From the IMG/VR virus record IMGVR_UViG_3300025154_000052, positions 1 through 64,000 of that record: DNA of 64,000 bases. The stretch is one strand, 5' to 3'. Under the pieces are notes generated by a model. The model searched no databases, was not told the origin of the DNA, and worked only from the letters and a program-made list of their open reading frames with translations. Origin of the DNA: a virus. This document shows positions 26,305 through 53,801 of this stretch, piece after piece; the stretch's first letter is position 1, and every line of letters begins with the position of its first letter. Both the position numbers and the translations under genes were made by a program.

Positions 26305-28185
26305 ATGTTCAATCTGCGGAACAATGGTGCAATTTACAGGCTGGTTCTCTGGATCTCCCAGACTCTCGGTGACATCACGTCGTCCCCCACGATTACGGCG
26401 GGCACGGGGGCGCCCACGGCAGCCGAGCCGAACGGGTCCACCTATCACCGGACGAACGGATCCATCTACAAGCGGACCGGTGGCGCCTGGGTGGAGATGA
26501 TCGATACGTCGGTCATCAATGACATGGACTTCACGGCGAATGCCGACGCGGCAGCCGGTGCAAACGAAGTCGGGTCGTTGCGGGCCAAGTCGTCCAGTGT
26601 GGCCGAAGTCCATTCGGTCGTGCTCGAGAACGACGCCACCAATAACTGGGCCGCCCTCTACCGCCTGAACGGCGCAACCCCCGTCTCGACACACGTCCAC
26701 CTGGGCGTCCCCGGTGACACGAATCTGGGCCGAGACATCACCATCACGATGGACGCCAGCACAGACGCGGGCCTGGCCAACCCTGCCACCATCGTTGCCA
26801 GGGGCCAGGAGGACGACCTGTCCTTCGCCGGCGTGGCCACATACGCCTTCGACGGAAACATTACGGTGACGGGCACGGTGGACGGGCGGGACGTGGCGAC
26901 GGACGGCGGGAAACTCGACGGGGTCGAGTCTGGGGCAGACGTGACCGACGCGACCAATGTCGCGGCGGCTGGCGCGGTTATGGAATCGGATACGACCACG
27001 GCAGCGATGAACTTTGTGGTCGATGAAGACTCGATGGTCTCGAATCTCGATACCAAGGTGCCCACGCAGCAGAGCGTCAAGGCATACGTCGACGGACGAG
27101 TCGCGGGACTGCTCGACTACAAGGGCGGCTATAACGCGGCGACGAACACGCCTGACCTGGACACGACGCCTTCCGGGGTGCTGAAGGGGGACAGTTACAC
27201 GGTAACCGTTGCCGGCACTTTCTTCACCGCGGAGGTCGAGGCGGGCGACATGCTGATTGCCGAAGTCGATGCGGCGGCGGCCGAGGCGGACTGGACGATC
27301 GTTCAGTCGAATCTTACGGCCGGGTCGATCAAGACCGCATACGAGTCCAACGCAGACACCAACGCGTACACGGACGCAGAGGCTGCCAAGTTGGCAGGGA
27401 TAGAGGCATCGGCCGACGTGACCGATTTTACGAACGTGTCTGCCGCCCTGGCAGCGGCTTCGGGATCTGTTGCGGTCAACAGCCAGAAGATCACCGGGCT
27501 GGCTTCCGGTGCGGCTTCCGGCGAAGCGGTCCATTACTCGCAGCTCGAGTACTCGCTGAACGGCGTCATCCCGAACGCGGTGCTCGCTCTCCCGAATGCG
27601 GTGGTCGATGGAGATTACGTAGAGATCGGAACGGATCTCTACGAGTGGGACGACGGCGGCGGAACGGCTCAGCCGGGAGCCATCACCGTTCTCCTGGGTG
27701 GCGGAATCGCAGACGCTCGAACGAACCTGATCACCGCAATCAACACGTCCGGAACCGAGAACGTGAAGGCGACGGCAGATGGAACCGGGGTGATGATCCA
27801 GCCGGCCGATGCCCCAGGCGGAACGGTGGTGGCTGCCAACCCGGACATCCTGCTTGCCGAGACCATCACCGATGTGGCGGACATCTGGGTGTGCGGTGCG
27901 GTGAACTTGAACACGCTCGGCGGCGAGGCAACAGCACTGAAGCGGAAGTGTACGGCCAGCATCACGATCACGACTGCGATGGTAGCGGGGGCCAGTTACA
28001 GACTCTTCGACGCCCCGTTCACGCCGAGTCGAATCAAGGGAGTCTTTGTCCGGACGGCAGTCGGCGCGATCCGGTACGACGTGACTGACCAGTTCACGAT
28101 CACCGGCAACGGGGTGACGTGGACCAGCGCAGGCGCAACACACCTCGTCAACACGAACGTCGTCGAGGTGGAAGTCATCGGATAG
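26305..28185 (+). CDS. Tail fibre / virion fibre protein
   Basis: GTGAP...GSTYHRT...GGAW motif and KLDGVESGADVTD / KLAGIEASADVTD repeats typical of phage fibres. Confidence 0.65.
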   Translation: MFNLRNNGAIYRLVLWISQTLGDITSSPTITAGTGAPTAAEPNGSTYHRTNGSIYKRTGGAWVEMIDTSVINDMDFTANADAAAGANEVGSLRAKSSSVAEVHSVVLENDATNNWAALYRLNGATPVSTHVHLGVPGDTNLGRDITITMDASTDAGLANPATIVARGQEDDLSFAGVATYAFDGNITVTGTVDGRDVATDGGKLDGVESGADVTDATNVAAAGAVMESDTTTAAMNFVVDEDSMVSNLDTKVPTQQSVKAYVDGRVAGLLDYKGGYNAATNTPDLDTTPSGVLKGDSYTVTVAGTFFTAEVEAGDMLIAEVDAAAAEADWTIVQSNLTAGSIKTAYESNADTNAYTDAEAAKLAGIEASADVTDFTNVSAALAAASGSVAVNSQKITGLASGAASGEAVHYSQLEYSLNGVIPNAVLALPNAVVDGDYVEIGTDLYEWDDGGGTAQPGAITVLLGGGIADARTNLITAINTSGTENVKATADGTGVMIQPADAPGGTVVAANPDILLAETITDVADIWVCGAVNLNTLGGEATALKRKCTASITITTAMVAGASYRLFDAPFTPSRIKGVFVRTAVGAIRYDVTDQFTITGNGVTWTSAGATHLVNTNVVEVEVIG

Positions 28186-28615
28186 CCTCGCTCTCCCTCG
28201 CCCACTTTCCTACCTGTCCACAGTAACTAATCCTCTGACTGAAACTCGCTGGAATACACTGCGTGACTTCCTTCCCGTCCGCACTGTGCGGGCATTCCGA
28301 CTTGCACCGCTCGAGTACTCGTCGCTCCACGTCCGGTTGTTGATCCACTGCTTCCGTCTTCTCTGTCGCGGCTTCGAACCTTGATGCGCATACACTGATT
28401 ATCGCACCCACCTGGTCAGCGTACATCTTGCCGACGCACACGTCAGCCTTGAGACACGACTCACAGCCAACACCCGCCGCTCGAGTCGGAATGATGGCGT
28501 AGCCGATCGACTTCACATGCTGGACCACGAAGCCGCACGAGGTGCACAGCCCTTCCTCTGACGCCGCCTTTACGCTCTCGCACATCAGACACATGTCATC
28601 CATCGCAGCCTCCAA
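28175..28615 (-). CDS. Cys-rich hypothetical protein
   Basis: Several CxxC pairs; GGAGG RBS. Confidence 0.5.
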   Translation of the reverse strand: MEAAMDDMCLMCESVKAASEEGLCTSCGFVVQHVKSIGYAIIPTRAAGVGCESCLKADVCVGKMYADQVGAIISVCASRFEAATEKTEAVDQQPDVERRVLERCKSECPHSADGKEVTQCIPASFSQRISYCGQVGKWARESEAIR

Positions 28616-29456
28616 GATAACGCTTTATCGCCTCCCTGCCGGTCGTAGTCGCCCGGTAGGTATATCGACCAGGGCATGGCTCCGTTCGCTCTACCAGTCG
28701 CCTTGCAGTGAGCCTGGCGCACATTCTCGACATGCCCTGCCAACTGATGCCGATCCCCATTGCCGCCTGTGCTATTGATGATCGTCCATCGGCCATGGCG
28801 ATCAGTGCCGCGAGCGCTTCATGGGACAGCGGGACAGGCATGGGAGGTAGAACGATCGCATACCGACTCACCTCCTCACCGACTGCGTATCGGTCCACCA
28901 CACGGCCACACGCAGGACAGTGGGGACGGTGTGACATGAGCGGCGCCCAGAAGGTAACGATCTCAGACCCGGCGTGACGAGTTGACGCCTTGCACTCAAG
29001 TCGCTTCCATCGGAAGGGTGTCTCGAGGCATGACACGTTGAACAGGTACCGCTTTCGTAGCCGCGGGCTGATCCAGTCAGGGTCTACGATCTCGGGTCGA
29101 TGGGTGAGAAACTTCTCAACCTCGTCGAGCGCAAACATGCGCATGGTCGCTCGCCCAAATACCTTGCGCGGTCCATCATGTGTCACCATGCCGAGTTCCG
29201 TCACCCAGCGGGTGATCTCTTTCGGACTGACACCCAGTAGCGCAGTAATGTGGAGCGTCGGATACCATCCCTGATGATCCGTCTGGGTGTAGCCGAGTTC
29301 AGCCGCCTTGGCCTTCACCGCACCCACAGTGCGCCTTACACGCTTGGCAACAAACTCAGGTGTCTGCGCCCCCCACATGTCCGTCAGGATGTCCAGATCA
29401 GATTTCGAGTCGCTGAATGCATCCTGTTTGTTGATGATTCCCCATCTGCGTCCCAT
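28596..29456 (-). CDS. Putative DNA-binding regulator (HTH, zinc finger, winged-HTH)
   Basis: VAKRVRRTVGAVKAKAAELG, TALLGVSPKEITRW, CPAC, QAAMGIGISWQGMSRMCARLTARRLVER. Confidence 0.55.
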   Translation of the reverse strand: MGRRWGIINKQDAFSDSKSDLDILTDMWGAQTPEFVAKRVRRTVGAVKAKAAELGYTQTDHQGWYPTLHITALLGVSPKEITRWVTELGMVTHDGPRKVFGRATMRMFALDEVEKFLTHRPEIVDPDWISPRLRKRYLFNVSCLETPFRWKRLECKASTRHAGSEIVTFWAPLMSHRPHCPACGRVVDRYAVGEEVSRYAIVLPPMPVPLSHEALAALIAMADGRSSIAQAAMGIGISWQGMSRMCARLTARRLVERTEPCPGRYTYRATTTGREAIKRYLGGCDG

Positions 29457-29479
29457 ACTCCGCTCTCCGCATCGCGCCG

Positions 29480-30043
29480 CTACAACAAGCTTTCAGTGGG
29501 TGTGCTGGAGCTGTTCGCGATAATGGCGTCCAGCACAGGGCTCAATTTATCGTTGGTGACGATCCGGCTGATGCGCCGGTACTCTTCGAGAAAGGACTCG
29601 TACACGTCCTTGTGGACCCAGCCGGTAACATCCCCTATCAGAAAGGGTACCCAGTCGCCCGACTCGGGGTCTGGGTTTGAGTCGAATTGGTGGATGGCCT
29701 GGCGTAGCGCAACCTGGACGGCAGGCGGGAGACCGCGAAGTTTCAGCAGATTCCTGATGTACCCTGACGGCACACCCAGCATCATCTGTCCGGCGTGCTT
29801 CTTCGCCCGGTATCCCATAATGAACCGTCCGCGATCGTCTCGACGTAGCCAGCCTTCGTACTCATCAAATGCGGATTTGAGGAACCCGCCGACCTGCCCG
29901 TTCGGGAGGCTTTGGGGTGGGCGTGACTGGCCTGATGATATCGACGGCGCTGTCGGGGACGGCGAACCAGTGGGTTCCTTCGTCTCCTGGCCACCAACAG
30001 ACGTAGGTAACTTCAGCGTGGGTCGTCTTCTGTCGCCTGACAT
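29480..30043 (-). CDS. Hypothetical protein (true start probably further downstream)
   Basis: MGYRAKKHAGQMMLGVPSGYIRNLL resembles the small xPFGKxKG...VPxxYLxW domain. The 5' part overlaps another ORF. Confidence 0.45.
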   Translation of the reverse strand: MSGDRRRPTLKLPTSVGGQETKEPTGSPSPTAPSISSGQSRPPQSLPNGQVGGFLKSAFDEYEGWLRRDDRGRFIMGYRAKKHAGQMMLGVPSGYIRNLLKLRGLPPAVQVALRQAIHQFDSNPDPESGDWVPFLIGDVTGWVHKDVYESFLEEYRRISRIVTNDKLSPVLDAIIANSSSTPTESLL

Positions 30044-30176
30044 ACTCCCCCTGTTCCCGATTCAACGCCGACTCGGGGATGATCCGGATCTCCGTCCCCG
30101 CTGGCATCTCCATCCACCCGCCCTTCCCCTCCCGGTGGAATTTCAGAGTCGTCTTCAGTGTCGCCGGAATGAACAT
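29865..30176 (-). CDS. Hypothetical small beta-rich protein (start uncertain)
   Basis: Protein-like ORF overlapping its neighbours. Confidence 0.4.
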   Translation of the reverse strand: MFIPATLKTTLKFHREGKGGWMEMPAGTEIRIIPESALNREQGEYVRRQKTTHAEVTYVCWWPGDEGTHWFAVPDSAVDIIRPVTPTPKPPERAGRRVPQIRI

Positions 30177-30414
30177 CGGTCACCCCATCTGCCAGCCTGA
30201 ACCGTGGTTCATCCTCACTGTCGAGCCAGTCAGCGACCAGTTTTCCTTCCATCGTGAGTTTGATGGCTGCCGCCATGGCGAGTGCTCCGGCACACCAGTT
30301 CACGAACCGATGCGCCTCCTCCTCGGTAACTCTCGCGTCTCCTCGTCCATCAACGAGTGCGATGATGAGGGCTTCGATCTGGTCGTCGGTAAGGACGTTG
30401 ATACTATCGAGCAT
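30013..30414 (-). CDS. Hypothetical protein translationally coupled to the type V nuclease
   Basis: ATG lies inside the last codons of the nuclease gene, after AAGGA. Confidence 0.55.
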   Translation of the reverse strand: MLDSINVLTDDQIEALIIALVDGRGDARVTEEEAHRFVNWCAGALAMAAAIKLTMEGKLVADWLDSEDEPRFRLADGVTDVHSGDTEDDSEIPPGGEGRVDGDASGDGDPDHPRVGVESGTGGVCQATEDDPR

Positions 30415-32089
30415 CGTGCAGTTCCTTCTTTGCGCATCGTGGTTTCTTCACGACTGCACTCTGTTCACCGGTTGTCTTCGCCTCATCCAGCGCTTTACGC
30501 AGTATGTTCACAGCCGCGTTGATGTCGCGATCATGAGACACACCACACACCGGACATGTCCATGTTCTCACCGACATCGGCAGATCGTCCACTCGCTCAC
30601 CACATGCAGAGCATATCTTGCTCGATGCGGACCACTTATCGATCCGCACCGACCGACCGCCATACGCCGGCGCCTTGTACTCGAGTTGCCGGCGGAATTC
30701 CCCAGGGCATGCGTCGGTCAGACTGCGCTGGAATCCGCGCTTGCGCTTCCCTTCGCCGGTCATCTTCTCTGCGTTCTGAGTCTTCATCTCGTTGAAGTTG
30801 ATGTCCTCCAGTCCGATAAAACTGTAGGTCTGCACGATGCGAGTTGTGGCCTTGTGCATGTGATCATTACGCTGATTGGCGGCATGCTGCTGGAGTTTGG
30901 TGATCTTCGCCTCAAGGTCGATCATGCGCTGTGACTTCTGGCGACCACACCCCCGGCACCGACGACAGCGCTTTGACTCGTCCTCCAGATCCTTCCCGGT
31001 GCCCTTGCAGACCTCACATGTCACTGCCCGCCTATCCTGGACCTGGCCTGCACCAGAGCACCGCTTGCATTCCTTCTTCTTGTCCGGTTCACCAGCGCAC
31101 GCCGGGCACGGAAGCCAGATACTCTTGAGACTGATGGCCTGATTGAGTTTCGCGATCCGTGGTTCGTTCTTTCGTGCAGCGTGGAGGTTATCGATCTTCT
31201 CACCAGTGGAGAGAGTGGCAGTTGACGCTACGCCAAGATCGACACCGACTGATGGACCGGCATGCGCGGCAGGATCGGGAACGGTAATATCCATCACCTG
31301 AATAGATGCGTACCAATGCCGGTTGTCCTCGAAGACTCGAGCAGACGCAACCCGCCCTTGAAAACGCAGTTCTTCTGCCATCGTAATGCGCTGATGGTAT
31401 TTGTTCCCAGTGAACACGAAGTGTTTGCCATCAACGCCAAATATCGCGTTGCAGCCACTCTTGTCTGAACCCGGCAGAAGAAAACTCTTCCCGCTGCTTC
31501 TGTTCTTGAATCGCGGATGACCACATCCCATCCATGCGGGGAAATCCTTACACCAGCAGTTCTTGTCATCCTTACGGCGTGAGCATGGCTTTGAACCACA
31601 CTCCTTGAAATACTTATTCCACGCCTTGTTGAGGTCGATGAATGCATTGAAGCCGACCATCGCAGGCACGGCATTTGCGATTACTGCACCACGCAGTTGC
31701 CCGGATGCCGATGTCTTCTTGACCTGTGTCCATGCCGCACTCGCAGGAGCAGAGTCCCAACCTGTGGGAGCCCGCTTCAACCGATCATCATCTGTATAAC
31801 TTGCCCATTCAACCTTGGGCTTGCTCTGCTTTTTCTTTTTATCGTCAGACACTTCAGTCTTTTTCTTTTTACGCTTTGATTCTTTCTTGGGTTTCAGTGC
31901 TGGATCACGGGCCAGTCGTTCGGCGTCTGAGAGTGCATTCCAGTCGGCAATGACGCGACGATTCGACTCAATTAAGAATGACAGCCCGAAGTTCCAGGCG
32001 GTGCGAGCCACGAAGGCGCAGTCTTGGAGAAAGCGTTCCTGCTCTTTGGTGGGGAACAGACGTATTCTGTGCGACCTTGATATGTTCAC
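30404..32089 (-). CDS. CRISPR-associated TnpB-derived type V nuclease (Cas12f / V-U-like)
   Basis: N-terminal HRIRLFPTKEQ...ARTAWN (TnpB-type). RuvC-I VGVDLG, RuvC-II IGLEDINF, CSAC...CPVC zinc finger, RuvC-III HDRDINAAVNI. GTG at 32089 after GGAGG (ORF track start 32101). Adjacent to CRISPR arrays. Confidence 0.85.
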   Translation of the reverse strand: MNISRSHRIRLFPTKEQERFLQDCAFVARTAWNFGLSFLIESNRRVIADWNALSDAERLARDPALKPKKESKRKKKKTEVSDDKKKKQSKPKVEWASYTDDDRLKRAPTGWDSAPASAAWTQVKKTSASGQLRGAVIANAVPAMVGFNAFIDLNKAWNKYFKECGSKPCSRRKDDKNCWCKDFPAWMGCGHPRFKNRSSGKSFLLPGSDKSGCNAIFGVDGKHFVFTGNKYHQRITMAEELRFQGRVASARVFEDNRHWYASIQVMDITVPDPAAHAGPSVGVDLGVASTATLSTGEKIDNLHAARKNEPRIAKLNQAISLKSIWLPCPACAGEPDKKKECKRCSGAGQVQDRRAVTCEVCKGTGKDLEDESKRCRRCRGCGRQKSQRMIDLEAKITKLQQHAANQRNDHMHKATTRIVQTYSFIGLEDINFNEMKTQNAEKMTGEGKRKRGFQRSLTDACPGEFRRQLEYKAPAYGGRSVRIDKWSASSKICSACGERVDDLPMSVRTWTCPVCGVSHDRDINAAVNILRKALDEAKTTGEQSAVVKKPRCAKKELHDAR

Positions 32090-32111
32090 TTCCGCCTCCA
32101 CTCTACACTTT

Positions 32112-32348
32112 GCTACTCAGCATCCGCTGTCACGCGCCGGTGGTAAACAGATGGGCTGGATCGAGCAGCTCACAATGGTTCTCGCTACTCAGCATCCGCT
32201 GTCACGCAGATCGGGGGGCGGTCATGATTACCAAACCTGTCACAATGGTTCTCGCTACTCAGCATCCGCTGTCACGTCTCTTTCCAGGCGGTTACGTCGC
32301 ACACCTCTTCGGTCACAATGGTTCTCGCTACTCAGCATCCGCTGTCAC
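32112..32348 (-). CRISPR. CRISPR mini-array 1: three near-complete repeats, one truncated terminal repeat, 3 spacers
   Basis: Repeat GTGACAGCGGATGCTGAGTAGCGAGAACCATTGTGAC (37 bp, minus sense) at 32312-32348, 32239-32275 and 32169-32205 (one mismatch); 22-bp remnant at 32112-32133. Spacers 36, 33 and 35 bp. Confidence 0.93.
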
Positions 32349-32391
32349 TGCCTCACTAAATTTGTAAGGTGTAGCAACCATTTGCGAGCAC

Positions 32392-32462
32392 GTAGCGCGA
32401 ACCTTCGCGTTTCCAGTTGAGCGTCAACTATATCCGCGCTTATACCGATGTGTGCTCACCGG
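32392..32462 (-). ncRNA. Putative tracrRNA-like scaffold and anti-repeat, copy 1
   Basis: 46/62 identity with 32910-32971; hairpins with compensatory changes; 13/16 match to repeat 1 in anti-repeat orientation at 32392-32407. Confidence 0.6.
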
Positions 32463-32557
32463 TAAATACCTGAAATCTATTGTTTATTTTTCTTGTCTAT
32501 ACCTGCGCGAACCTGCCTGTGTTTTGATGTTTGCTACAGGTCCGCGATCATTCTAGT

Positions 32558-32855
32558 CACTCCCAACGATCAGCTATTGTCAGCCATTACCCATCTCATC
32601 AGTGCCCTCAATGGCACTCCCAACGATCAGACATTGTCAGGTGTTGTGCACTGGTCGATCGGTTTTACCCAGACGCCCTCAATGGCACTCCCAACGATCA
32701 GACATTGTCAGTGTTAGCTGTAAGTGAGGTTAAAGTGGCAAGTATCGTCCCTCAATGGCACTCCCAACGATCAGACATTGTCAGCCGGGACTGTGTCAGC
32801 AGCAGCCGCACGCAGTGCGCCCTCAATGGCACTCCCAACGATCAGACATTGTCAG
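32558..32855 (-). CRISPR. CRISPR mini-array 2: four full repeats, one degenerate terminal repeat, 4 spacers
   Basis: Repeat CTGACAATGTCTGATCGTTGGGAGTGCCATTGAGGGC (37 bp, minus sense) at 32819-32855, 32748-32784, 32675-32711 and 32604-32640; degenerate copy at 32558-32583. Spacers 34, 36, 34 and 20 bp. Confidence 0.95.
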
Positions 32856-32891
32856 GGCTGCCACCAAGACGCCAGCAATTCCAATGGCTTA

Positions 32892-32971
32892 TGATCACGT
32901 TTTCGAGCGCCTTCGCGTTTCCGGTTAAGGTTTAACCATTGACGCGCTTAAGCCGACGCTAAGTTCACCGG
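32892..32971 (-). ncRNA. Putative tracrRNA-like scaffold and anti-repeat, copy 2
   Basis: Homologous to copy 1 at nearly the same distance from its first repeat; GAGCGCCTTCG versus repeat 2 GAGTGCCATTG. Confidence 0.55.
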
Positions 32972-33221
32972 CTATCAACTAGTTGAACGTCGTAACGTCC
33001 AATCCTGTATTCAGTTTTCAAAACTCGGTATAGACCATCTGGTCATGCGAGCGACCCCCGGGATCTGAGACATCGCCGGGCCGCTCGAAAAAGGATGTCG
33101 AAGGTGCTCTCATGAGTCATGAGAATTGGCCGATCACCGTAGAGCCTTAGCACCGACGACATGAACCCAGTCTAGCACGAATCATTAAACTAGTCTCTAA
33201 AATAATCCGTGCCAGGAGGTT

Positions 33222-33731
33222 TTAGTTCCCCATCGCCGCAAACGCCGCGTCGAACGGCGCTTCGTCCTCGGTCAACACGTCGATGTCGATCCACAGGCTC
33301 GAGTTCAGTCGATGGTAAAGAGCGTTCCACGTCGCCTCATCCAGTGCAGCGTCCACCTTGAATTCAAGGCAGGCGGACCCGCCCTGAACGAGGCACTTCA
33401 CCTTACCGGTAATGATGGCCTCGTTCAGGGTGATGACGGCGTGGTGAGTGTCCAGCGTGGCATGTAGACGAATAGTGAGAGGCGGGAAGGTGTCCTCAAG
33501 TTGGTCGTCCCAGCGGCGACCGTCAACACTGTCCTCGAGCCGCTGGCGAAGTCCTGGAAAGTGGGTCTCGACAGATTCGACGACCTCGTCCGGGACGTCT
33601 TCGTCGAGTTCAAGACGGAAGCCCATCTCCCCCCTGACTGCTCGCTCTCCCCGAAGTGGAGACACCTTGACCTTGTGGTGAGACCGAAACAAAGTGACCC
33701 GCACCCGCTTGAACGACTCGAACATATCCAC
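33222..33731 (-). CDS. Hypothetical protein
   Basis: 169 aa, GTGGA RBS-like sequence, own promoter. Confidence 0.6.
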   Translation of the reverse strand: MDMFESFKRVRVTLFRSHHKVKVSPLRGERAVRGEMGFRLELDEDVPDEVVESVETHFPGLRQRLEDSVDGRRWDDQLEDTFPPLTIRLHATLDTHHAVITLNEAIITGKVKCLVQGGSACLEFKVDAALDEATWNALYHRLNSSLWIDIDVLTEDEAPFDAAFAAMGN

Positions 33732-33756
33732 CCCACAGCAAAAAGACCACGGGTGT

Positions 33757-33784
33757 ATTATATCACGGGAGGGGAATGGATCAA
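33757..33784 (-). promoter_or_regulatory. Putative sigma70 promoter (may read through into the CRISPR locus)
   Basis: TTGATC-N16-TATAAT with an extended TG. Confidence 0.6.
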
Positions 33785-33835
33785 CAAAATTAAATGGTAG
33801 TTTAATCTATCCGTACATGCGGACAAAAAAAGGGG

Positions 33836-34333
33836 TCATGTGGTGATGGTCACTTCGATGCGTGCCGAGTCGGATTCGACCCACTCCCACGATCCCGCTC
33901 TCACCACACGAAGACGGTCATCCTTGATCACACCAGCCTTGACCATGGCGTCGAGCACGCTACCGATCGCGTTGTCGCCGTCACACGAACCAGCGCCACC
34001 GATGAGTTTCACATCCACGCGAACTCGCTCGAGTCGCATGGGTCCAGTCCATTGTGAAGTGATCTGCTTCTGTGCCTGCCTCAACCACTCGGTGTAATCG
34101 GCTGGCCGTCGAACGTCGATACCTCCTCCGTCGTCGATAAACGACCGTCCACGGGCTTTTCCCTTGGGTGGAAGGCTCAAGACAAGCATGTAGGTCTGAC
34201 CGCTCTCTACAACCGGGACAGTGGGCTTCCTGGCCGTGTTCGTTCGCCCGATCTTCCGGGTGTCGACCATCCGGAGATCTCCACCCGCCTCTTTCAGCAA
34301 CCGTCTGAACTCTTCCCGCGTAATGTCCGCCAT
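33836..34333 (-). CDS. rusA: Holliday junction resolvase, RusA family
   Basis: LPPKGKAR...DGDNAIGSVLDAMVKAGVIKDD...ARIEVTI. Confidence 0.8.
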   Translation of the reverse strand: MADITREEFRRLLKEAGGDLRMVDTRKIGRTNTARKPTVPVVESGQTYMLVLSLPPKGKARGRSFIDDGGGIDVRRPADYTEWLRQAQKQITSQWTGPMRLERVRVDVKLIGGAGSCDGDNAIGSVLDAMVKAGVIKDDRLRVVRAGSWEWVESDSARIEVTITT

Positions 34334-34428
34334 CGCTTCCGCTCCGATTTGTCGTGTAGAATCGGTCGTGATACAGTCGAATCTGTTGGAACCAACACAA
34401 CAGTCAATCCCTGTACAGGAGTAATTTC

Positions 34429-34761
34429 ATGGCTATCACAGTCGCAAATGATGCCGTTATCGGCGTCGTCCCGTCGTCCCCCAAGCGCACCATCCGTATG
34501 AAACTCACCGGAGACGCGACCTACGCAGCCGGTGGCTACACCCTCGGTCTCGGTGCGCGCGCCGGCTTCAAGGACCTGGGAACCGGCGTCAAGCCCAACA
34601 CCATCACCTTCGAGGGATGTACGGTGTTCACTCTGGCCGCCGCCTACGACCGGGCCAACGACAAGATCTACATCGTCGACTACTCGACCGGCGCCGAAGC
34701 GGCCGACAACCTGGGAGGCATCAACGGCGCGATCTTCTACTTCCAGGTGACCTTCGAGTAG
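34429..34761 (+). CDS. Small putative virion decoration-like protein in reverse orientation
   Basis: AGGAG RBS, strongly C/G-ending codons, GDATYAAGGY motif; only plus-strand gene in the block. Confidence 0.55.
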   Translation: MAITVANDAVIGVVPSSPKRTIRMKLTGDATYAAGGYTLGLGARAGFKDLGTGVKPNTITFEGCTVFTLAAAYDRANDKIYIVDYSTGAEAADNLGGINGAIFYFQVTFE

Positions 34762-34763
34762 GA

Positions 34764-36137
34764 TCACCGTTCCAGATCCGAGAACCGCCCAGTCTCCTTC
34801 TCGAACATTACCTTCACGGTGCCAGTCGGGCCATTCCGCTGCTTTGCGATGATGATCTCGCACACCCCCTTCTGATCAGGATCGATGTCCTTGTTGTAGA
34901 CCTCGTCACGATACATGAACATGATGAGATCCGCGTCCTGCTCCAACGAACCACTCTCACGCAAATCAGACATAACAGGCCGTTTGTCTTGTCTACTCTC
35001 GAGACTTCGATTGAGTTGGGCCAGGGTGAGGCACGGCACCTCTAACTCTTTCGCCAGTCGCTTGAGTTCACGGCTACGCCGGGCGATCTCCTGCTCCCGG
35101 CTCCCGCCGATGTCGCTGTCATCCATCAACTGGATGTAGTCGAGGATGATCGCCTTGAGTTGGTACTTCTTGTGAGCGGCCCGGGCCTTGACTTTCAACT
35201 CTTCGATGGTTCCTGGCATCTCGTCGATGTAGATCGGCGCGTCGTAGATCCGATCTACGGCATCGTTCAGGAGTGCTGCTTCCTCGTCGGTCATCTGTCC
35301 GGTACGAACCGCCTGAGCATTGACACCGGACTCTGAACAGAGTAGCCGAAGGTGCAGTTGTAGCAGGCTCATCTCAACACTGAATATGGCCACCGGGTAG
35401 TTGTAAACCATCGCCATGTATCGGGCGAGGTACAACGCAAAGGCCGTTTTTCCCATCGACGGACGGCCCGCAAGGATGATCTGATCCGTGGGTTGAAGAC
35501 CAGCTGTAAGTCTGTCGAGTTCAGTCAACCCGGTGGGGACTCCGGTGATGGCTGCCTGATTATTCCGCAACCGCTGAATATGGTCCACGGTGGCCTGGGT
35601 GGCGTCAGCGATGGAGATCAACCCCTTCCCCGTCGTCTGCGCTTCCGCCAGTTCTTCACCGACCTGACTGGTGAAGGTGAGGAGTTCCCCCACAGGCGTT
35701 CCCATGTCGATAGACTTCTCGGAGAGACGCTTACCCGCGGCATATGCCTTTCTGCGAATGGCATCTTCCTTCACGGTCAAGGCATAGTGCCGGGCCCGGG
35801 ACGTGTCAGCGACATGCGTTGTAAGATCGGAGACATATTCCAGGCCACCCGCGACATCCACCCGATCCGCCTTTATCAGCGCTCGAGGTAGGGTTACTCC
35901 GTCGATGGGTGACGACTGGGCGTGCAACTCCACGATGGCCTGGAAGATCACCTGATGCCGTGGATTCCAGAAGTCAGCCGGCTTCACAAGGGTGAGCACA
36001 TCATCCACGACCGAATTGTCGATGATGATAGATCCGATCACGGCTCGCTCGGCAACTTCATCCCGGGGCAACGGGCTATTCGCTTCCGTCGTTCTGAGTC
36101 CTGGCCTTGTCCGCTCCCGCTTCTGCTCTTTCCTCAC
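34764..36137 (-). CDS. dnaB: Replicative DNA helicase DnaB
   Basis: AERAVIGSII, GRPSMGKT, DYIQL, AQLNRS, DLRESGSLEQDAD, KQRNGP. GTG start overlaps the previous stop; no intein. Confidence 0.96.
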   Translation of the reverse strand: MRKEQKRERTRPGLRTTEANSPLPRDEVAERAVIGSIIIDNSVVDDVLTLVKPADFWNPRHQVIFQAIVELHAQSSPIDGVTLPRALIKADRVDVAGGLEYVSDLTTHVADTSRARHYALTVKEDAIRRKAYAAGKRLSEKSIDMGTPVGELLTFTSQVGEELAEAQTTGKGLISIADATQATVDHIQRLRNNQAAITGVPTGLTELDRLTAGLQPTDQIILAGRPSMGKTAFALYLARYMAMVYNYPVAIFSVEMSLLQLHLRLLCSESGVNAQAVRTGQMTDEEAALLNDAVDRIYDAPIYIDEMPGTIEELKVKARAAHKKYQLKAIILDYIQLMDDSDIGGSREQEIARRSRELKRLAKELEVPCLTLAQLNRSLESRQDKRPVMSDLRESGSLEQDADLIMFMYRDEVYNKDIDPDQKGVCEIIIAKQRNGPTGTVKVMFEKETGRFSDLER

Positions 36138-36943
36138 TGGTCGCCTCCCGAGAACGTTTTCAATTCGGCGCGATAGTTCGGGCCGGTAAAGGTAATTTGC
36201 TTGCCTTCGCACATCTGGAAGAGCCGATAAGCGACCCTTGCAGGGTAGACCTGTGCGACGTCTGCAAGGCTATGCTCAGACGTGACCACGGTAGGAAGCC
36301 GCCACAGAGCACGGTGGTCGATGATGTCGCAGATGAACGACTGGAGCCAGTCGGGGAGTCCTCCTTTCGTGCTGCCCAGATCGTCAATCACCAGTAGCCC
36401 GGCGTGTCTCCACTCCTTCCGAATGTCCGCCTTCGTTCCGGCATCCACGTCTGACTCTCGCATGAACCGGCCCGATCTCCCCGTGTGGCGAATGTGGTGC
36501 AGCAGTGCAGCTATCGCGGCAACAGTCTTCCCCCGCCCGGTCTTACCGCACAGATGGACAGACCCACCCGACTCAACGACCGACTGCAACTTCCTGAGTC
36601 GGTCCTCGTTCGTCTCGTTGATCAGACCATCCAATGTCAACGTCCAGAGATGGCTGGGCACACCAGACAGGGAGATCTCACGATGAACCGACTCTGCCCA
36701 TGCCTTGGCCGCTGTCTGCGCCTGCCGAGCCGCGCGACACGTCGAACAGGTCTGTAGTACCCACTGGCTTGTTGACAACGGCATCAGGCGATACTGGAGG
36801 GACGCTCCACACTCGCACTGAACCGGGTCAGGTTGCGGCGTGAGCGGGACAGCTCCTGCTTCCTTCCACCGTCGATACGATCCCATGTCAAAACTCAACA
36901 GCCTCCTCCTTTCACAATTCACGCACTTCGGGCATCTCGTCAT
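36134..36943 (-). CDS. DnaC/IstB-like ATPase (helicase loader)
   Basis: GKTGRGKT Walker A, LLVIDDLG Walker B, VVTSE, CECG...CSTC zinc motif. Confidence 0.85.
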   Translation of the reverse strand: MTRCPKCVNCERRRLLSFDMGSYRRWKEAGAVPLTPQPDPVQCECGASLQYRLMPLSTSQWVLQTCSTCRAARQAQTAAKAWAESVHREISLSGVPSHLWTLTLDGLINETNEDRLRKLQSVVESGGSVHLCGKTGRGKTVAAIAALLHHIRHTGRSGRFMRESDVDAGTKADIRKEWRHAGLLVIDDLGSTKGGLPDWLQSFICDIIDHRALWRLPTVVTSEHSLADVAQVYPARVAYRLFQMCEGKQITFTGPNYRAELKTFSGGDQ

Positions 36944-38234
36944 GAATGTAGTACGTTTGGCCCTTTCGAATGTCGGGTAGGCGTTTTACAGGCTGTGCCG
37001 CCGCTTTTCTCCTGGCTATGGCCGCCTGGAGGTTGTCCATGCTTCCGAACAGCCGGATGAACGTGTACTTACCCTGTTCCTTCCAGTAGGTGTCCGCCGG
37101 AGCTCGCGCCCCGTCGATGTACTGGTCGCGAGGAGCGCCAGACGTGATCCACGCCTGTGCGGTCATGCGGACGGTGTTGTAGCCCCGTGCATCAAGGGCT
37201 GCCGGTTGTCCATGCGCTTCCGAGAACGCGACAAGGGAGTCGGCCACCAGCGAGAAGACATCTGGATCGGCAGGCTTGCGCTGGCACTCGGTGCCGTACC
37301 ACAGGCTGGACCACAACTTCACGAGTGACGAGTTTTTGAACCGCTCCTCGAGCATCGGCTTCGCCTTCCCGGTTCGGCGCTTCGTCGGCGTGGATGTGCC
37401 CTGTTGTGACTCTTCCATGGGCGGAACGGCATCCTCTCTGGCAGGCTCAGCCAATAACGAAACGGGCTCATCGTCAGCCGTAACGGGGGGTAGACTGCGT
37501 TCGCAGGACTGAGCGGCTGGGGTGGTAGCCGTTCGGGGGGGGCGGCCCGCTGACGGGGCGATATCGAGTCGGAGTTGCGGCCGGGCACGACGCGACGGGG
37601 TGGGTGCTATCCCCGATCCCGTTTTGGTTCCCGTTCCCGTATTCTCCCCCCGGTCCCCGACCTCTCTCTTCCCAGCGGTCCCCTCCCCGTTCCCCCGATC
37701 AGCCACGGTGCCCGCTCCGGGCTCGATGCCCCGATCCGCTACTGACTCGAGCGAAGCCGAGTCAGTTATTCCCCGTACCCTCTCCTCCCGAAGGGAGGAG
37801 ATATTGTTAGTAGGGTTAAGATCAGAAGAAGAAGTATTAATAATAGAATAGGTATTAGACGCGCGCGCGCGCGAGGGAGGTTTTTGGGAGGGAAGCGGGA
37901 GGAATTCGGGAGGGAGCGTGGAGGGATCAGGGCCTGAGAACCGCGCCATTACGGCATCGGCTGGGAGGAATGCTGGAGAAGTACTGGGAGGTTTTTGGGA
38001 GGGAAGCGGGAGGAATGCATTCGTATGTGCCAACCTTATGACTTGACGTGCTTTCCAGTCTGTCATCCCGGTGTGAGAAGAAAACCGCCGTCTACCCCAA
38101 TCGGCTTCATGTCCAGTGGCCAGAATCGCTTGATAGGCGATCTCGGCTAGCAGTTCATCGCATGGAGCGTCAGCGGTGTATCTGCCCGCAAGAAAGTGCT
38201 CGTATACGCGCTCGGCTTGAATAACGAGATGCAT
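36912..38234 (-). CDS. Replication initiator protein (lambda O-like position)
   Basis: ATG at 38234 after GGAG; internal direct repeats and low-complexity linker; upstream of the DnaC-like and DnaB genes. Confidence 0.6.
   Translation of the reverse strand: MHLVIQAERVYEHFLAGRYTADAPCDELLAEIAYQAILATGHEADWGRRRFSSHTGMTDWKARQVIRLAHTNAFLPLPSQKPPSTSPAFLPADAVMARFSGPDPSTLPPEFLPLPSQKPPSRARASNTYSIINTSSSDLNPTNNISSLREERVRGITDSASLESVADRGIEPGAGTVADRGNGEGTAGKREVGDRGENTGTGTKTGSGIAPTPSRRARPQLRLDIAPSAGRPPRTATTPAAQSCERSLPPVTADDEPVSLLAEPAREDAVPPMEESQQGTSTPTKRRTGKAKPMLEERFKNSSLVKLWSSLWYGTECQRKPADPDVFSLVADSLVAFSEAHGQPAALDARGYNTVRMTAQAWITSGAPRDQYIDGARAPADTYWKEQGKYTFIRLFGSMDNLQAAIARRKAAAQPVKRLPDIRKGQTYYIHDEMPEVREL
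37800..38016. repeat. Iteron-like direct repeats, GC-dinucleotide run and AT-rich tract (probable origin)
   Basis: 31-bp GGGAGGTTTTTGGGAGGGAAGCGGGAGGAAT at 37875-37905 and 37986-38016; alternating CG run at about 37860-37873; AT-rich 37800-37858. Confidence 0.65.
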
Positions 38235-52046: not shown

Positions 52047-53801
52047 ATGATACCGCGTGAGATCATCGACGAAGTCCGGAATCGGATCTCCATCGTGGAG
52101 GTCGTGGGCCGTTATGTGGGATTGCGCCAAAAGGGTAAATCTCACTGGGGTCTGTGCCCGTTCCATACCGAGAAGACCCCTTCCTTCCACGTCAGCGACC
52201 TCAAGCGGATGTTCTACTGCTACGGCTGTCAGGCGGGTGGCGACGTCTTCAAGTTCGTCGCTCAGATCGAGAGTGCTTCCTTCATGGAAGTGCTTCAGGA
52301 CCTGGCCCGCCAGTGCGGCGTTGAACTCCCGCCAGCGTCCCCGCAAACGCAGCGCGTCCAGACTGAGCGTGAGCAACTTCTGAGCCTGACAGAGGTTGCT
52401 ACCAGTTGCTATGAGCGTGGCCTGGCCAGGTCGCCTACTGCACGAGCGTACCTCGAGCGGCGAGGAATACCGCCCGAGATTGTAAAGTCGTTCAGGCTGG
52501 GCTATGCGCCTCCGGGATGGGAGAACCTACATCGATACTTCGCCCGCCATGGACACTCGGTTGATGGTGGTGTCAAGACCGGGCTGCTGGTACGTCGTGA
52601 GGATGGCAAAGGCTGCTACGACCGGTTCAGGGATCGGATTATTTTTCCCATCTTCAACGTCTCCGGGAAGGTAATTGGATTCGGTGGGCGGATACTGGAC
52701 ACAGGCGAGCCAAAGTATCTCAACTCGCCTGAGAGCGTCCTGTTCAACAAGTCGAACGCTCTGTACGGGCTCGAGCAGGCACGGCGAGTCATCGCTCAGG
52801 AGGACTGTGCAGTCGTTGTGGAGGGCAACATCGATGCACTGTCGTTGCATGCGGCTGGTATCCGTCATGCTGTGGCGACGTGTGGTACTGCCCTGACGAA
52901 AGGGCATCTCCGGACGCTGAAGCGATACACCAGGCGGGTGCTACTCGTCTACGACGGTGATCGAGCTGGCCAGGCGGCGGCTGAACGTAGCCTGCCGATG
53001 TTTCTGGATGAGGACCTGTGGCCGTACTTCGTGTCACTACCTGTCGGTCAAGACCCGGATGACATAGTGCGTGCCGAAGGTGGAGACAGGTTCAAGACAC
53101 GGCTTGCTGGGGCTGTACCGCTGCTCGAGCACGTCATAGCGGTACATGCTAAGGGTGCAATCTCGTCGCCCATGAAACGTGAACAGGGATTGCGCGAGGT
53201 GATACCTCTCCTGGCCCGTCTGGCGGCTGAGCGGTGTGACTACTATGTCGGCTATACTGCGCAACTCTTCGGTGTCCGTGAGGAGTCGATACGCACGCTA
53301 CTGAGTGTTCAGGGTCCACGACAAGCGCAAGACATCCCTATCACGGCCAATCAGACACCCCTACCTGTGCAAGAGGAGTGGCTATTACAGTGGCTGCTCT
53401 GCTGTCCTGAATGCACTGAGACGGTGGACGAGATCAAGGTCATTGACTTCGTGTCTGATTGGCGTGTTCAGAAGATGGCTCGATGGATCGTCCGGCAACG
53501 ACTAGCCGGCAAGGTAGTCGAGTCGTCAACTTTTCTGGAGATGGTCAGGGACCAGGAAGTCAAGCAGCGACTGATTGAGTTGATCATGGAGGGTGTTGGA
53601 GATGGGGATGATCGACATTTTGAACAGATGGTTCTACGAATCAAACTAGCACGACTCCGACAGATCTCGAGCGAGGCTCAGGGTGAGATTCAGACGGCTA
53701 GTCGGGGTGCTACCCAGGAACGGATACTTGAGTTGATACAGCACAAGGTGCGGGTCGATCGAGAGGTTGCGGCAGTGCAGCGGATGCTGAAAGGAGACTG
53801 A
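52047..53801 (+). CDS. dnaG: DNA primase DnaG (full-length, bacterial type)
   Basis: CPFHTEKTPSF zinc finger, DRFRDRIIFP, KYLNSPE, EGNID, DGDRAG. Confidence 0.96.
   Translation: MIPREIIDEVRNRISIVEVVGRYVGLRQKGKSHWGLCPFHTEKTPSFHVSDLKRMFYCYGCQAGGDVFKFVAQIESASFMEVLQDLARQCGVELPPASPQTQRVQTEREQLLSLTEVATSCYERGLARSPTARAYLERRGIPPEIVKSFRLGYAPPGWENLHRYFARHGHSVDGGVKTGLLVRREDGKGCYDRFRDRIIFPIFNVSGKVIGFGGRILDTGEPKYLNSPESVLFNKSNALYGLEQARRVIAQEDCAVVVEGNIDALSLHAAGIRHAVATCGTALTKGHLRTLKRYTRRVLLVYDGDRAGQAAAERSLPMFLDEDLWPYFVSLPVGQDPDDIVRAEGGDRFKTRLAGAVPLLEHVIAVHAKGAISSPMKREQGLREVIPLLARLAAERCDYYVGYTAQLFGVREESIRTLLSVQGPRQAQDIPITANQTPLPVQEEWLLQWLLCCPECTETVDEIKVIDFVSDWRVQKMARWIVRQRLAGKVVESSTFLEMVRDQEVKQRLIELIMEGVGDGDDRHFEQMVLRIKLARLRQISSEAQGEIQTASRGATQERILELIQHKVRVDREVAAVQRMLKGD

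Follow-up and report, generated by a model that had tools for sequence, protein, structure and literature searches.

A duplicated leader element of a phage CRISPR locus as the putative tracrRNA-like part of a split guide RNA of TnpB type

What purpose does a structured element serve that occurs twice, once in the leader of each of two CRISPR arrays, next to a single gene for a TnpB-family nuclease in a virus genome? The question is raised by IMG/VR virus record IMGVR_UViG_3300025154_000052, a record of 137.6 kb from groundwater metagenomes, of which the first 64 kb form the window analysed here. On the minus strand, the locus runs from an open reading frame (ORF; 33731-33222) through leader 2, array 2, leader 1 and array 1 to the nuclease gene, and the two copies of the element sit 0.3-0.9 kb 5' of that gene (Table 1). 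The element is probably a functional RNA structure of the minus strand, and the reading favoured here, to which I would assign a probability of about 0.6, is that it constitutes the half of the nuclease's split omegaRNA guide that resembles a tracrRNA (trans-activating CRISPR RNA), duplicated once per array.

A preliminary description of the window, made from the sequence alone, had found 32402-32462 and 32910-32971 identical at 46/62 positions, and global alignment gave the same count, while a repeat finder paired 32402-32448 with 32910-32956 at 77%. Local alignment of the two leaders scored 42; over 500 shuffles, scores averaged 17 and did not exceed 27. This core is the best-conserved block of the two leader-plus-array modules: identity between modules was 76% for the core, 54% for the repeats, 50% for the anti-repeat described below and 47% for the leader-proximal linker, the 43 nt beside the first repeat being the least conserved part, and the leader portions upstream of the scaffold were not conserved between modules. 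The distance to the leader-side repeat was near-equal in both modules as described before, although with the borders used here it amounted to 52 and 53 nt rather than 53 and 54 nt. That the elements lie upstream of their arrays was borne out by the degenerate repeats, which sit at the opposite, low-coordinate end in both arrays; the leaders are therefore on the high-coordinate side, and minus-strand transcription is to be expected, as for the nuclease gene.

Searches for the element elsewhere returned little. There was no relevant Rfam match (E up to 1) in 28000-38000 and no blastn match among INPHARED phages, the 9 matches of a conserved 16-mer in IMG/VR were all unrelated sequence, and a conserved-core pattern matched 6 times in 185,579 GTDB species genomes, in coding or unrelated intergenic sequence and never at arrays. 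A DNA leader motif shared with host arrays that have unrelated effectors, which had been named as the outcome that would speak against an RNA scaffold, was thus not found in the species genomes and IMG/VR. Natural variants that could inform on covariation were likewise not found, other assemblies and runs of the same phage being identical in sequence; covariation rests on two full copies and one partial relative. No RNA run was listed as containing the locus.

On the minus strand, where the repeats and the nuclease gene are also encoded, both copies fold alike. RNAalifold recovered three local helices in both copies, and explicit pair counts agreed: hairpin A (8 bp; a U-A to U-G change besides two double changes), an invariant CGCG stem of 4 bp, and hairpin B (7 bp; two double changes), which the stem encloses; after the stem, two A's precede the anti-repeat in both copies. 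The central hairpin of the preliminary description, with its two base pairs switching together, is hairpin B, and both it and the unchanged CGCG/CGCG stem around it withstood the pair counts. The second hairpin, here A, retained the wobble pairs that form on the minus strand only, but turned out to be longer than claimed, with two further double changes at its base. Within the local helices 38/38 cells were paired, whereas registers shifted by 1-3 columns gave 24-37% paired cells and zero double changes. The five-helix model, which includes the anti-repeat and pseudoknot helices introduced below, comprises 30 pairs over the two modules; 59/60 cells pair, and in 7 pairs both partners have changed. 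This result was equalled by only 6/500 shuffles, and shifting the registers by 1-3 columns reduced pairing to 29-40%, again with zero double changes. On the minus strand the wobble cells were 7 G-U and 0 A-C, so that the structure is complete on this strand only. The fold energy of copy 1 was lower than that of shuffled sequences (z -2.38).

Directly after the invariant 13-mer that closes the element, and at the homologous position in both copies, begins an anti-repeat that is complementary to the 3' part of its own array's repeat. Cognate duplexes were predicted to be the more stable ones, with -18.1 kcal/mol for module 1 as compared to -7.0 kcal/mol with repeat 2, and -14.3 kcal/mol for module 2 as compared to -9.2 kcal/mol with repeat 1. 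Sites as good as anti-repeat 1 occur about 14 times in 275 kb (both strands of the whole record), and hence about 0.003 would be expected in the 54-nt linker of module 1; linker 1 as a whole gave a z of -2.30 with repeat 1 against shuffles. The duplex of module 2 draws its weight from columns that it shares with module 1 in both leader and repeat, including two double changes. In the minimum free energy (MFE) fold of leader 1 plus first repeat, linker 1 forms the loop of the anti-repeat:repeat stem, and the repeats taken alone form no structure (z about 0), as expected of tracrRNA-dependent repeats. The working rule published for anti-repeats of compact type V systems (bioRxiv 10.64898/2026.03.27.714800) asks for at least 6/10 paired positions in the final 16 nt of the repeat, and both modules show such pairing. 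Two other complementary stretches were dropped: 32365-32385 in leader 1, which would pair with the same repeat nucleotides, has no counterpart in module 2, and a 7-nt complement of the repeat 2 tail within copy 2 (32934-32940) has none in copy 1.

A candidate pseudoknot joins the loop of hairpin A to the repeat nucleotides just before the spacer, with 4 pairs in module 1 and 5 in module 2. Four of these pairs share alignment columns, among them one with a double change and one in which G-C has become G-U. The chance of such a match was 0.015-0.075, depending on the null, which makes the pseudoknot suggestive only.

The nuclease matched the Pfam families HTH_OrfB_IS605, OrfB_IS605 and Cas12f1-like_TNB, and reached 207 bits, over the cut-off, with the NCBIfam model guided_TnpB, while the NCBIfam models Cas12f2 and C2c8 stayed far under their cut-offs (33 bits vs 450 for Cas12f2). 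The closest PDB structures were ISDra2 TnpB (9e-27), Cas12n (9J09; 1e-26) and LaTranC (6e-18), Cas12f reached 1.7e-4, and the best PADLOC model was Cas12u4 (1e-65). The RuvC triad of the nuclease aligns with the catalytic triad of ISDra2 TnpB (D191/E278/D361). About 25 residues follow the last RuvC motif, and the stop of the gene is overlapped by the next ORF (30013-30414). A single relative, P0002, with 41-47% identity, was found among 1.84 billion cluster representatives, followed by ordinary TnpBs of about 400 aa (1e-43); the lineage amounts to two members among about 15 billion proteins. IMG/VR held no confirmed relatives, a search for shorter protein fragments of the lineage found none, and the 44 loci retrieved from JGI metagenomes by protein pattern were all ordinary TnpBs. 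Going by its sequence, the nuclease groups with TnpB and not with an established Cas12 subtype, and it adjoins CRISPR arrays, as would be expected of an effector of the transposon-CRISPR intermediates (TranC; Jin et al. 2025, Cell 188:6283, in the account given by PMC13639567, PMC13565253 and bioRxiv 10.64898/2026.03.27.714800).

The protein carries two insertions, encoded at 30914-31117 and 31736-31912 (minus). One, a zinc finger of DnaJ type with four CXXCXGXG motifs, lies between RuvC-I and the bridge region and is shared by P0002; the other, lysine-rich and of low complexity (residues about 60-118), is absent from P0002.

A covariance model of the element (R1), built solely from the two copies, was then used to search for relatives, as the preliminary description had proposed, and it found an element after the gene of the nuclease's sole relative. 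This best non-self match in 262 kb (L003:1632-1699(+); E 0.01 over 262 kb, 0.0026 over 66 kb) begins 32 nt past the stop of P0002, on the same strand as the gene; R1 had no match in the 44 TnpB loci or at the 3' end of the nuclease gene in the window. Hairpin A of the L003 element has 8 bp and the same loop as copy 1; with L003 added, 5/8 pairs of hairpin A were changed on both sides and all cells were paired, in an alignment that is fitted to the model. The match beside the P0002 gene shows that the element accompanies the nuclease lineage. The contig, just 1768 nt long, shows no array behind the element. Upstream of the gene, L003:1-71 holds two repeat-like units 44 nt apart, which share their ending with repeat 1. 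Past the element, L003:1700-1768 contains a long stem-loop, and the contig ends with a second copy of the closing 8-mer of the window element.

Taken as a split guide, the locus would work as follows. Each copy would be the tracrRNA-like (5') half of a TnpB-type guide, encoded in the sense direction within its own array's leader. Its anti-repeat would pair with the 3' part of the same module's repeat and thereby restore the omegaRNA's stem 4, the loop of hairpin A would pair with the 4-5 repeat nucleotides before the spacer and recreate the pseudoknot of TnpB, Cas12f and Cas12n guides, and the conserved stems 1-3 with their junction would be what the single 561-aa nuclease recognises. The two duplexes would have diverged in step with the repeats of their arrays. 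At the leader-proximal repeat, pairing could occur in cis and yield a natural single guide, while later repeats would have to be paired in trans. Direct support comes from the sequence conservation, pairing, covariation and strand asymmetry of the element, from the positional homology of its copies and from its association with the nuclease lineage. The tracrRNA- or omegaRNA-like minus-strand scaffold of the preliminary description thus appears well founded as far as sequence and modelling go, given the compensatory changes, the strand-specific wobbles and the cognate anti-repeats, and the candidate pseudoknot, the match in topology with TnpB and Cas12n guides and the R1 match beside the P0002 gene point the same way. 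That the element is transcribed, processed, bound by the nuclease and used as a guide I infer from these features.

Several observations weigh against a guide function. The anti-repeat of module 2 has just 7 bp, linker 2 as a whole was unremarkable with repeat 2 (z -0.30), and the non-local helices, those of the anti-repeat and the pseudoknot, come from inspection of the same two sequences and from RNAalifold run on them. With only 2-3 sequences, which are not independent, covariation statistics are near their floor. The fold energy of copy 2 was no better than that of shuffles (z -0.43), and its MFE structure is without hairpin A. As traced from hairpin A through the anti-repeat, the scaffold measures 69-73 nt, less than the 100-200 nt that tracrRNAs of compact type V systems usually have, and a promoter or 3' end of the element's own is not recognisable. 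In L003, the alignment to R1 is weak past hairpin A, and no convincing anti-repeat was found for the visible repeat-like units.

An alternative is a structured leader RNA whose only action would be in cis, on the precursor of the CRISPR RNAs (crRNAs), for instance on stability, processing or read-through of the long operon transcript, and which would stay outside the nuclease's guide complex. The element is sense-oriented within a possible long transcript from 33784-33757, has no recognisable separate promoter or terminator, and is backed as a minus-strand RNA structure, from which nuclease binding is a further step; an 11-bp stem after array 2 (32506-32546) also suggests that there are more RNA-level signals in the locus. 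Nevertheless, I consider such a role unlikely, as it would leave unexplained the match to the cognate repeat beside the core in both modules, the co-variation of hairpin loop and repeat tail, the helix-by-helix likeness to TnpB and Cas12n guides, and the position of the L003 element after a gene instead of ahead of a visible array. A signal at the DNA level, kept after duplication of leader plus array and serving as promoter or operator, or as docking site for spacer integration by the host, seems more doubtful still. It would account for the same distance in both leaders, palindromes can bind proteins, and a phage without Cas1/Cas2 could rely on those of its host. However, the compensatory changes preserve pairing and not sequence, the wobbles render the structure strand-specific, no sigma-70-like site is found within the element, and its core pattern gave chance matches only in species genomes and IMG/VR, with none at arrays. 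The 43 nt beside the first repeat, the usual place of leader-anchoring signals in studied systems, are least conserved (47% vs 76% for the distal core), which together with the lack of Cas1/Cas2 in the record is not the pattern of an adaptation signal, and the L003 element is placed after a gene.

The origin of the nuclease raises the possibility that the element is a functionless remnant of the right-end subterminal hairpins of an IS200/IS605 transposon, which the Y1 transposase recognises as single-stranded DNA, carried along when TnpB was captured. The nuclease does belong to the TnpB family, omegaRNA scaffolds stem from right ends, and right-end hairpins co-vary too, but the record has no Y1 transposase, the two copies lie in array leaders and not at the 3' end of the gene, the element is more conserved than the repeats, and pairing with a cognate repeat has no role in transposition, all of which makes this explanation very improbable. 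Hardly any credence can be given to the idea that the true tracrRNA of array 2 lies elsewhere and the leader element is unrelated to the guide. Within 6 kb, duplex energy with repeat 2 is lowest at 33488-33527 on the plus strand (-38.7 kcal/mol; mean -19.0, standard deviation 3.9). By sequence alignment, however, the match scores 13, and chance maxima across the genome reach 22-24; the stretch is part of ORF 33222-33731, the product of which falls into clusters of hypothetical phage proteins, and repeat 1 has no counterpart to it. As an anti-repeat, 33488-33527(+) was rejected, being not significant by sequence and within a real gene.

The element can be compared with known guides of TnpB and its descendants. 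In the omegaRNA of ISDra2, the loop of stem 1 holds the 5' pseudoknot strand, a 4-bp stem 2 encloses a 7-bp stem 3a, the tetraloop of stem 4 joins the tracrRNA-like and crRNA-like parts, and the pseudoknot lies at -5 to -3 (PMC10097598). Helix order and sizes in ISDra2 (PDB 8H1J/8BF8) are those of the phage element, a match by prediction only. Stem 1 would be represented by hairpin A, stem 2 by the CGCG stem, stem 3 by hairpin B and a cut-open stem 4 by the anti-repeat:repeat duplex, with the repeat tail as the 3' pseudoknot strand. The proteins are homologous as well (9e-27), with an alignable catalytic triad. In contrast, the ISDra2 omegaRNA is one RNA that overlaps the 3' end of tnpB and takes a single guide from the transposon flank, while in the phage stem 4 is split between leader RNA and CRISPR repeats and the 3' end of the gene is overlapped by the next ORF. 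The placement of an omegaRNA is also not what was seen in the window, where the elements are upstream of arrays, R1 has no match at the gene's 3' end and there is no Y1 transposase; it does hold in L003, with the element after the gene. R1 detected no sequence similarity to omegaRNAs of the 44 TnpB loci.

TranC systems (PMC13639567, PMC13565253, bioRxiv 10.64898/2026.03.27.714800) share with the phage locus a TnpB-lineage nuclease by a short array without adaptation genes and a guide made of tracrRNA and crRNA that jointly reproduce the omegaRNA, which in the phage is a prediction; repeats of 32-38 nt, arrays of 3-5 units and some phage-borne members also agree. Such a helix mapping is expected under the 'functional RNA splitting' account of TranC. 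The phage lineage differs by its two members among 1.84 billion cluster representatives with a DnaJ-type zinc-finger insertion, and by its tracrRNA-like part, which lies in the array leader, in sense orientation, twice, and each time fitted to a different repeat. Cas12n (type V-U4, PDB 9J09) is likewise a miniature TnpB-like effector, in keeping with Cas12u4 as best PADLOC model, and it uses a dual guide whose stem 1 loop pairs with nt -4 to -2 in a pseudoknot (PMC12216341), similar to the candidate pseudoknot of the phage; the L003 element, right after its ORF, is near the position of a Cas12n tracrRNA. That tracrRNA, however, is about 170 nt long and overlaps a disordered C-terminal coding tail which the phage nuclease does not have, the phage element lies in array leaders, and similarity to 9J09 is limited to the RuvC region. 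Cas12f (type V-F) resembles the phage locus in encoding the tracrRNA between effector and array, in a pseudoknot with the repeat, of which the phage has a candidate, and in a short repeat:anti-repeat duplex beside few unpaired bases ahead of the guide, but it is a dimer on a longer scaffold, and the phage nuclease matches Cas12f models poorly. The kind of system is already known from the dual guides of TnpB-derived type V effectors of TranC, Cas12n or Cas12f type; new are the leader-embedded sense position, the duplication with co-diverged repeats and the rare effector lineage.

How type V CRISPR arose from TnpB is at present explained by an omegaRNA that split into tracrRNA and crRNA. If true, the reading proposed here would show this split in a very simple form, with a tracrRNA-like half that maps helix by helix onto the ancestral RNA and fronts repeat-spacer units in the same orientation. 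As the module is doubled and its repeats have diverged under one nuclease, the locus would be a natural experiment that parts stems and junction read by the protein from an anti-repeat and pseudoknot that need only pair, and this separation would be useful for the design of minimal or orthogonal guide scaffolds for miniature nucleases. The nuclease lineage is itself rare and has an unusual zinc-finger insertion. A bolder version, which I regard as speculative and with the odds clearly against it, would have one phage TnpB-derived nuclease served by two mutually orthogonal, leader-embedded tracrRNA/repeat pairs whose first units are ready-made single guides, a living intermediate of omegaRNA splitting, and would have the array 1 guide act on the phage's own genome, regulating or processing phage DNA and not only excluding competitors.

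The leader-proximal spacer of array 1 (32277-32312) has a perfect 36/36 match to its own record at G000:C1:106059-106094 (L059:5060-5095). This self-target falls at the 3' end of, and within, a small ORF of the minus strand and is about 80 nt upstream of the gene that follows; a crRNA from this spacer would pair with the plus (template) DNA strand and not with the mRNA. The 5' flank of the target on the non-target strand is unlike the repeat end, and the catalytic triad of the nuclease looks intact. Contigs with the self-target occur in both samples, and the ORFs beside it had no Pfam or PHROG match. For five spacers, no protospacers were found in IMG/VR, so that no protospacer-adjacent motif could be derived.

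Table 1. Positions of the nuclease gene, arrays, leaders and predicted RNA features of the locus.
Feature	Position	Strand	Remarks
Sigma-70-like promoter match	33757-33784	minus	10/12, TG-extended; consensus match only
Leader 2	33221-32857	minus	
Module 2 scaffold	32905-32973	minus	RNAalifold and pair counts; model R1; duplex energy
Module 2 helices	hairpin A 32951-32973 (loop 32959-32965); stem 32943-32946/32914-32917; hairpin B 32922-32938	minus	
Anti-repeat 2	32905-32911	minus	7 contiguous pairs, one G-U
Linker 2	32857-32904	minus	poorly conserved; between anti-repeat 2 and first repeat of array 2
CRISPR array 2	32547-32856	minus	5 repeats, 37-38 nt; degenerate repeat 32547-32584
Array 2 leader-proximal repeat	anti-repeat partner 32828-32834; candidate pseudoknot strand 32822-32826	minus	
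Leader 1	32546-32350	minus	
Module 1 scaffold	32392-32464	minus	RNAalifold and pair counts; anti-repeat match; duplex energy
Module 1 helices	hairpin A 32443-32464 (loop 32451-32456); stem 32435-32438/32406-32409; hairpin B 32414-32430	minus	
Anti-repeat 1	32392-32403	minus	11/12 to reverse complement of repeat 1
Linker 1	32350-32391	minus	poorly conserved; between anti-repeat 1 and first repeat of array 1
CRISPR array 1	32098-32349	minus	4 repeats, 36-37 nt; degenerate repeat 32098-32134, abuts nuclease start
Array 1 leader-proximal repeat	anti-repeat partner 32320-32331; candidate pseudoknot strand 32314-32317	minus	
TnpB-family CRISPR-associated nuclease P0001, 561 aa	30404-32089	minus	RuvC D/E/D triad intact; DnaJ-type zinc-finger insertion

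The neighbours of the nuclease locus include genes for DnaB helicase and RusA, and no Cas1, Cas2, Y1 transposase or second TnpB-like gene was found in the 137.6-kb record. The promoter match is the only minus-strand sigma-70-like match upstream of both modules and, as a consensus site, could drive read-through from ORF 33731-33222 across the two leaders and arrays into the nuclease gene. Located immediately upstream of leader 2, this ORF encodes a hypothetical protein that is conserved in tailed phages by ESM Atlas clusters and had no match in Pfam, PHROG or PADLOC.

The repeats of the two arrays are about 54-60% alike. Array 2 ends in a unit made of its degenerate repeat and a spacer of just 19 nt (32547-32603), directly after which, at the start of leader 1, the stem noted above (with a 19-nt loop and no following U-tract) may act as a processing or pause signal between the modules. 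The degenerate terminal repeat of array 1 reaches or enters the start-codon region of the nuclease gene (32089-32134), and array and gene are therefore probably co-transcribed. Finally, 53773-53790 on the plus strand agrees at 17/18 positions, with one gap, with the crRNA-sense sequence of repeat 1 in its 5' half; the stretch directly precedes a ribosome-binding site and ATG, and may be a chance match or a solitary repeat-like site.

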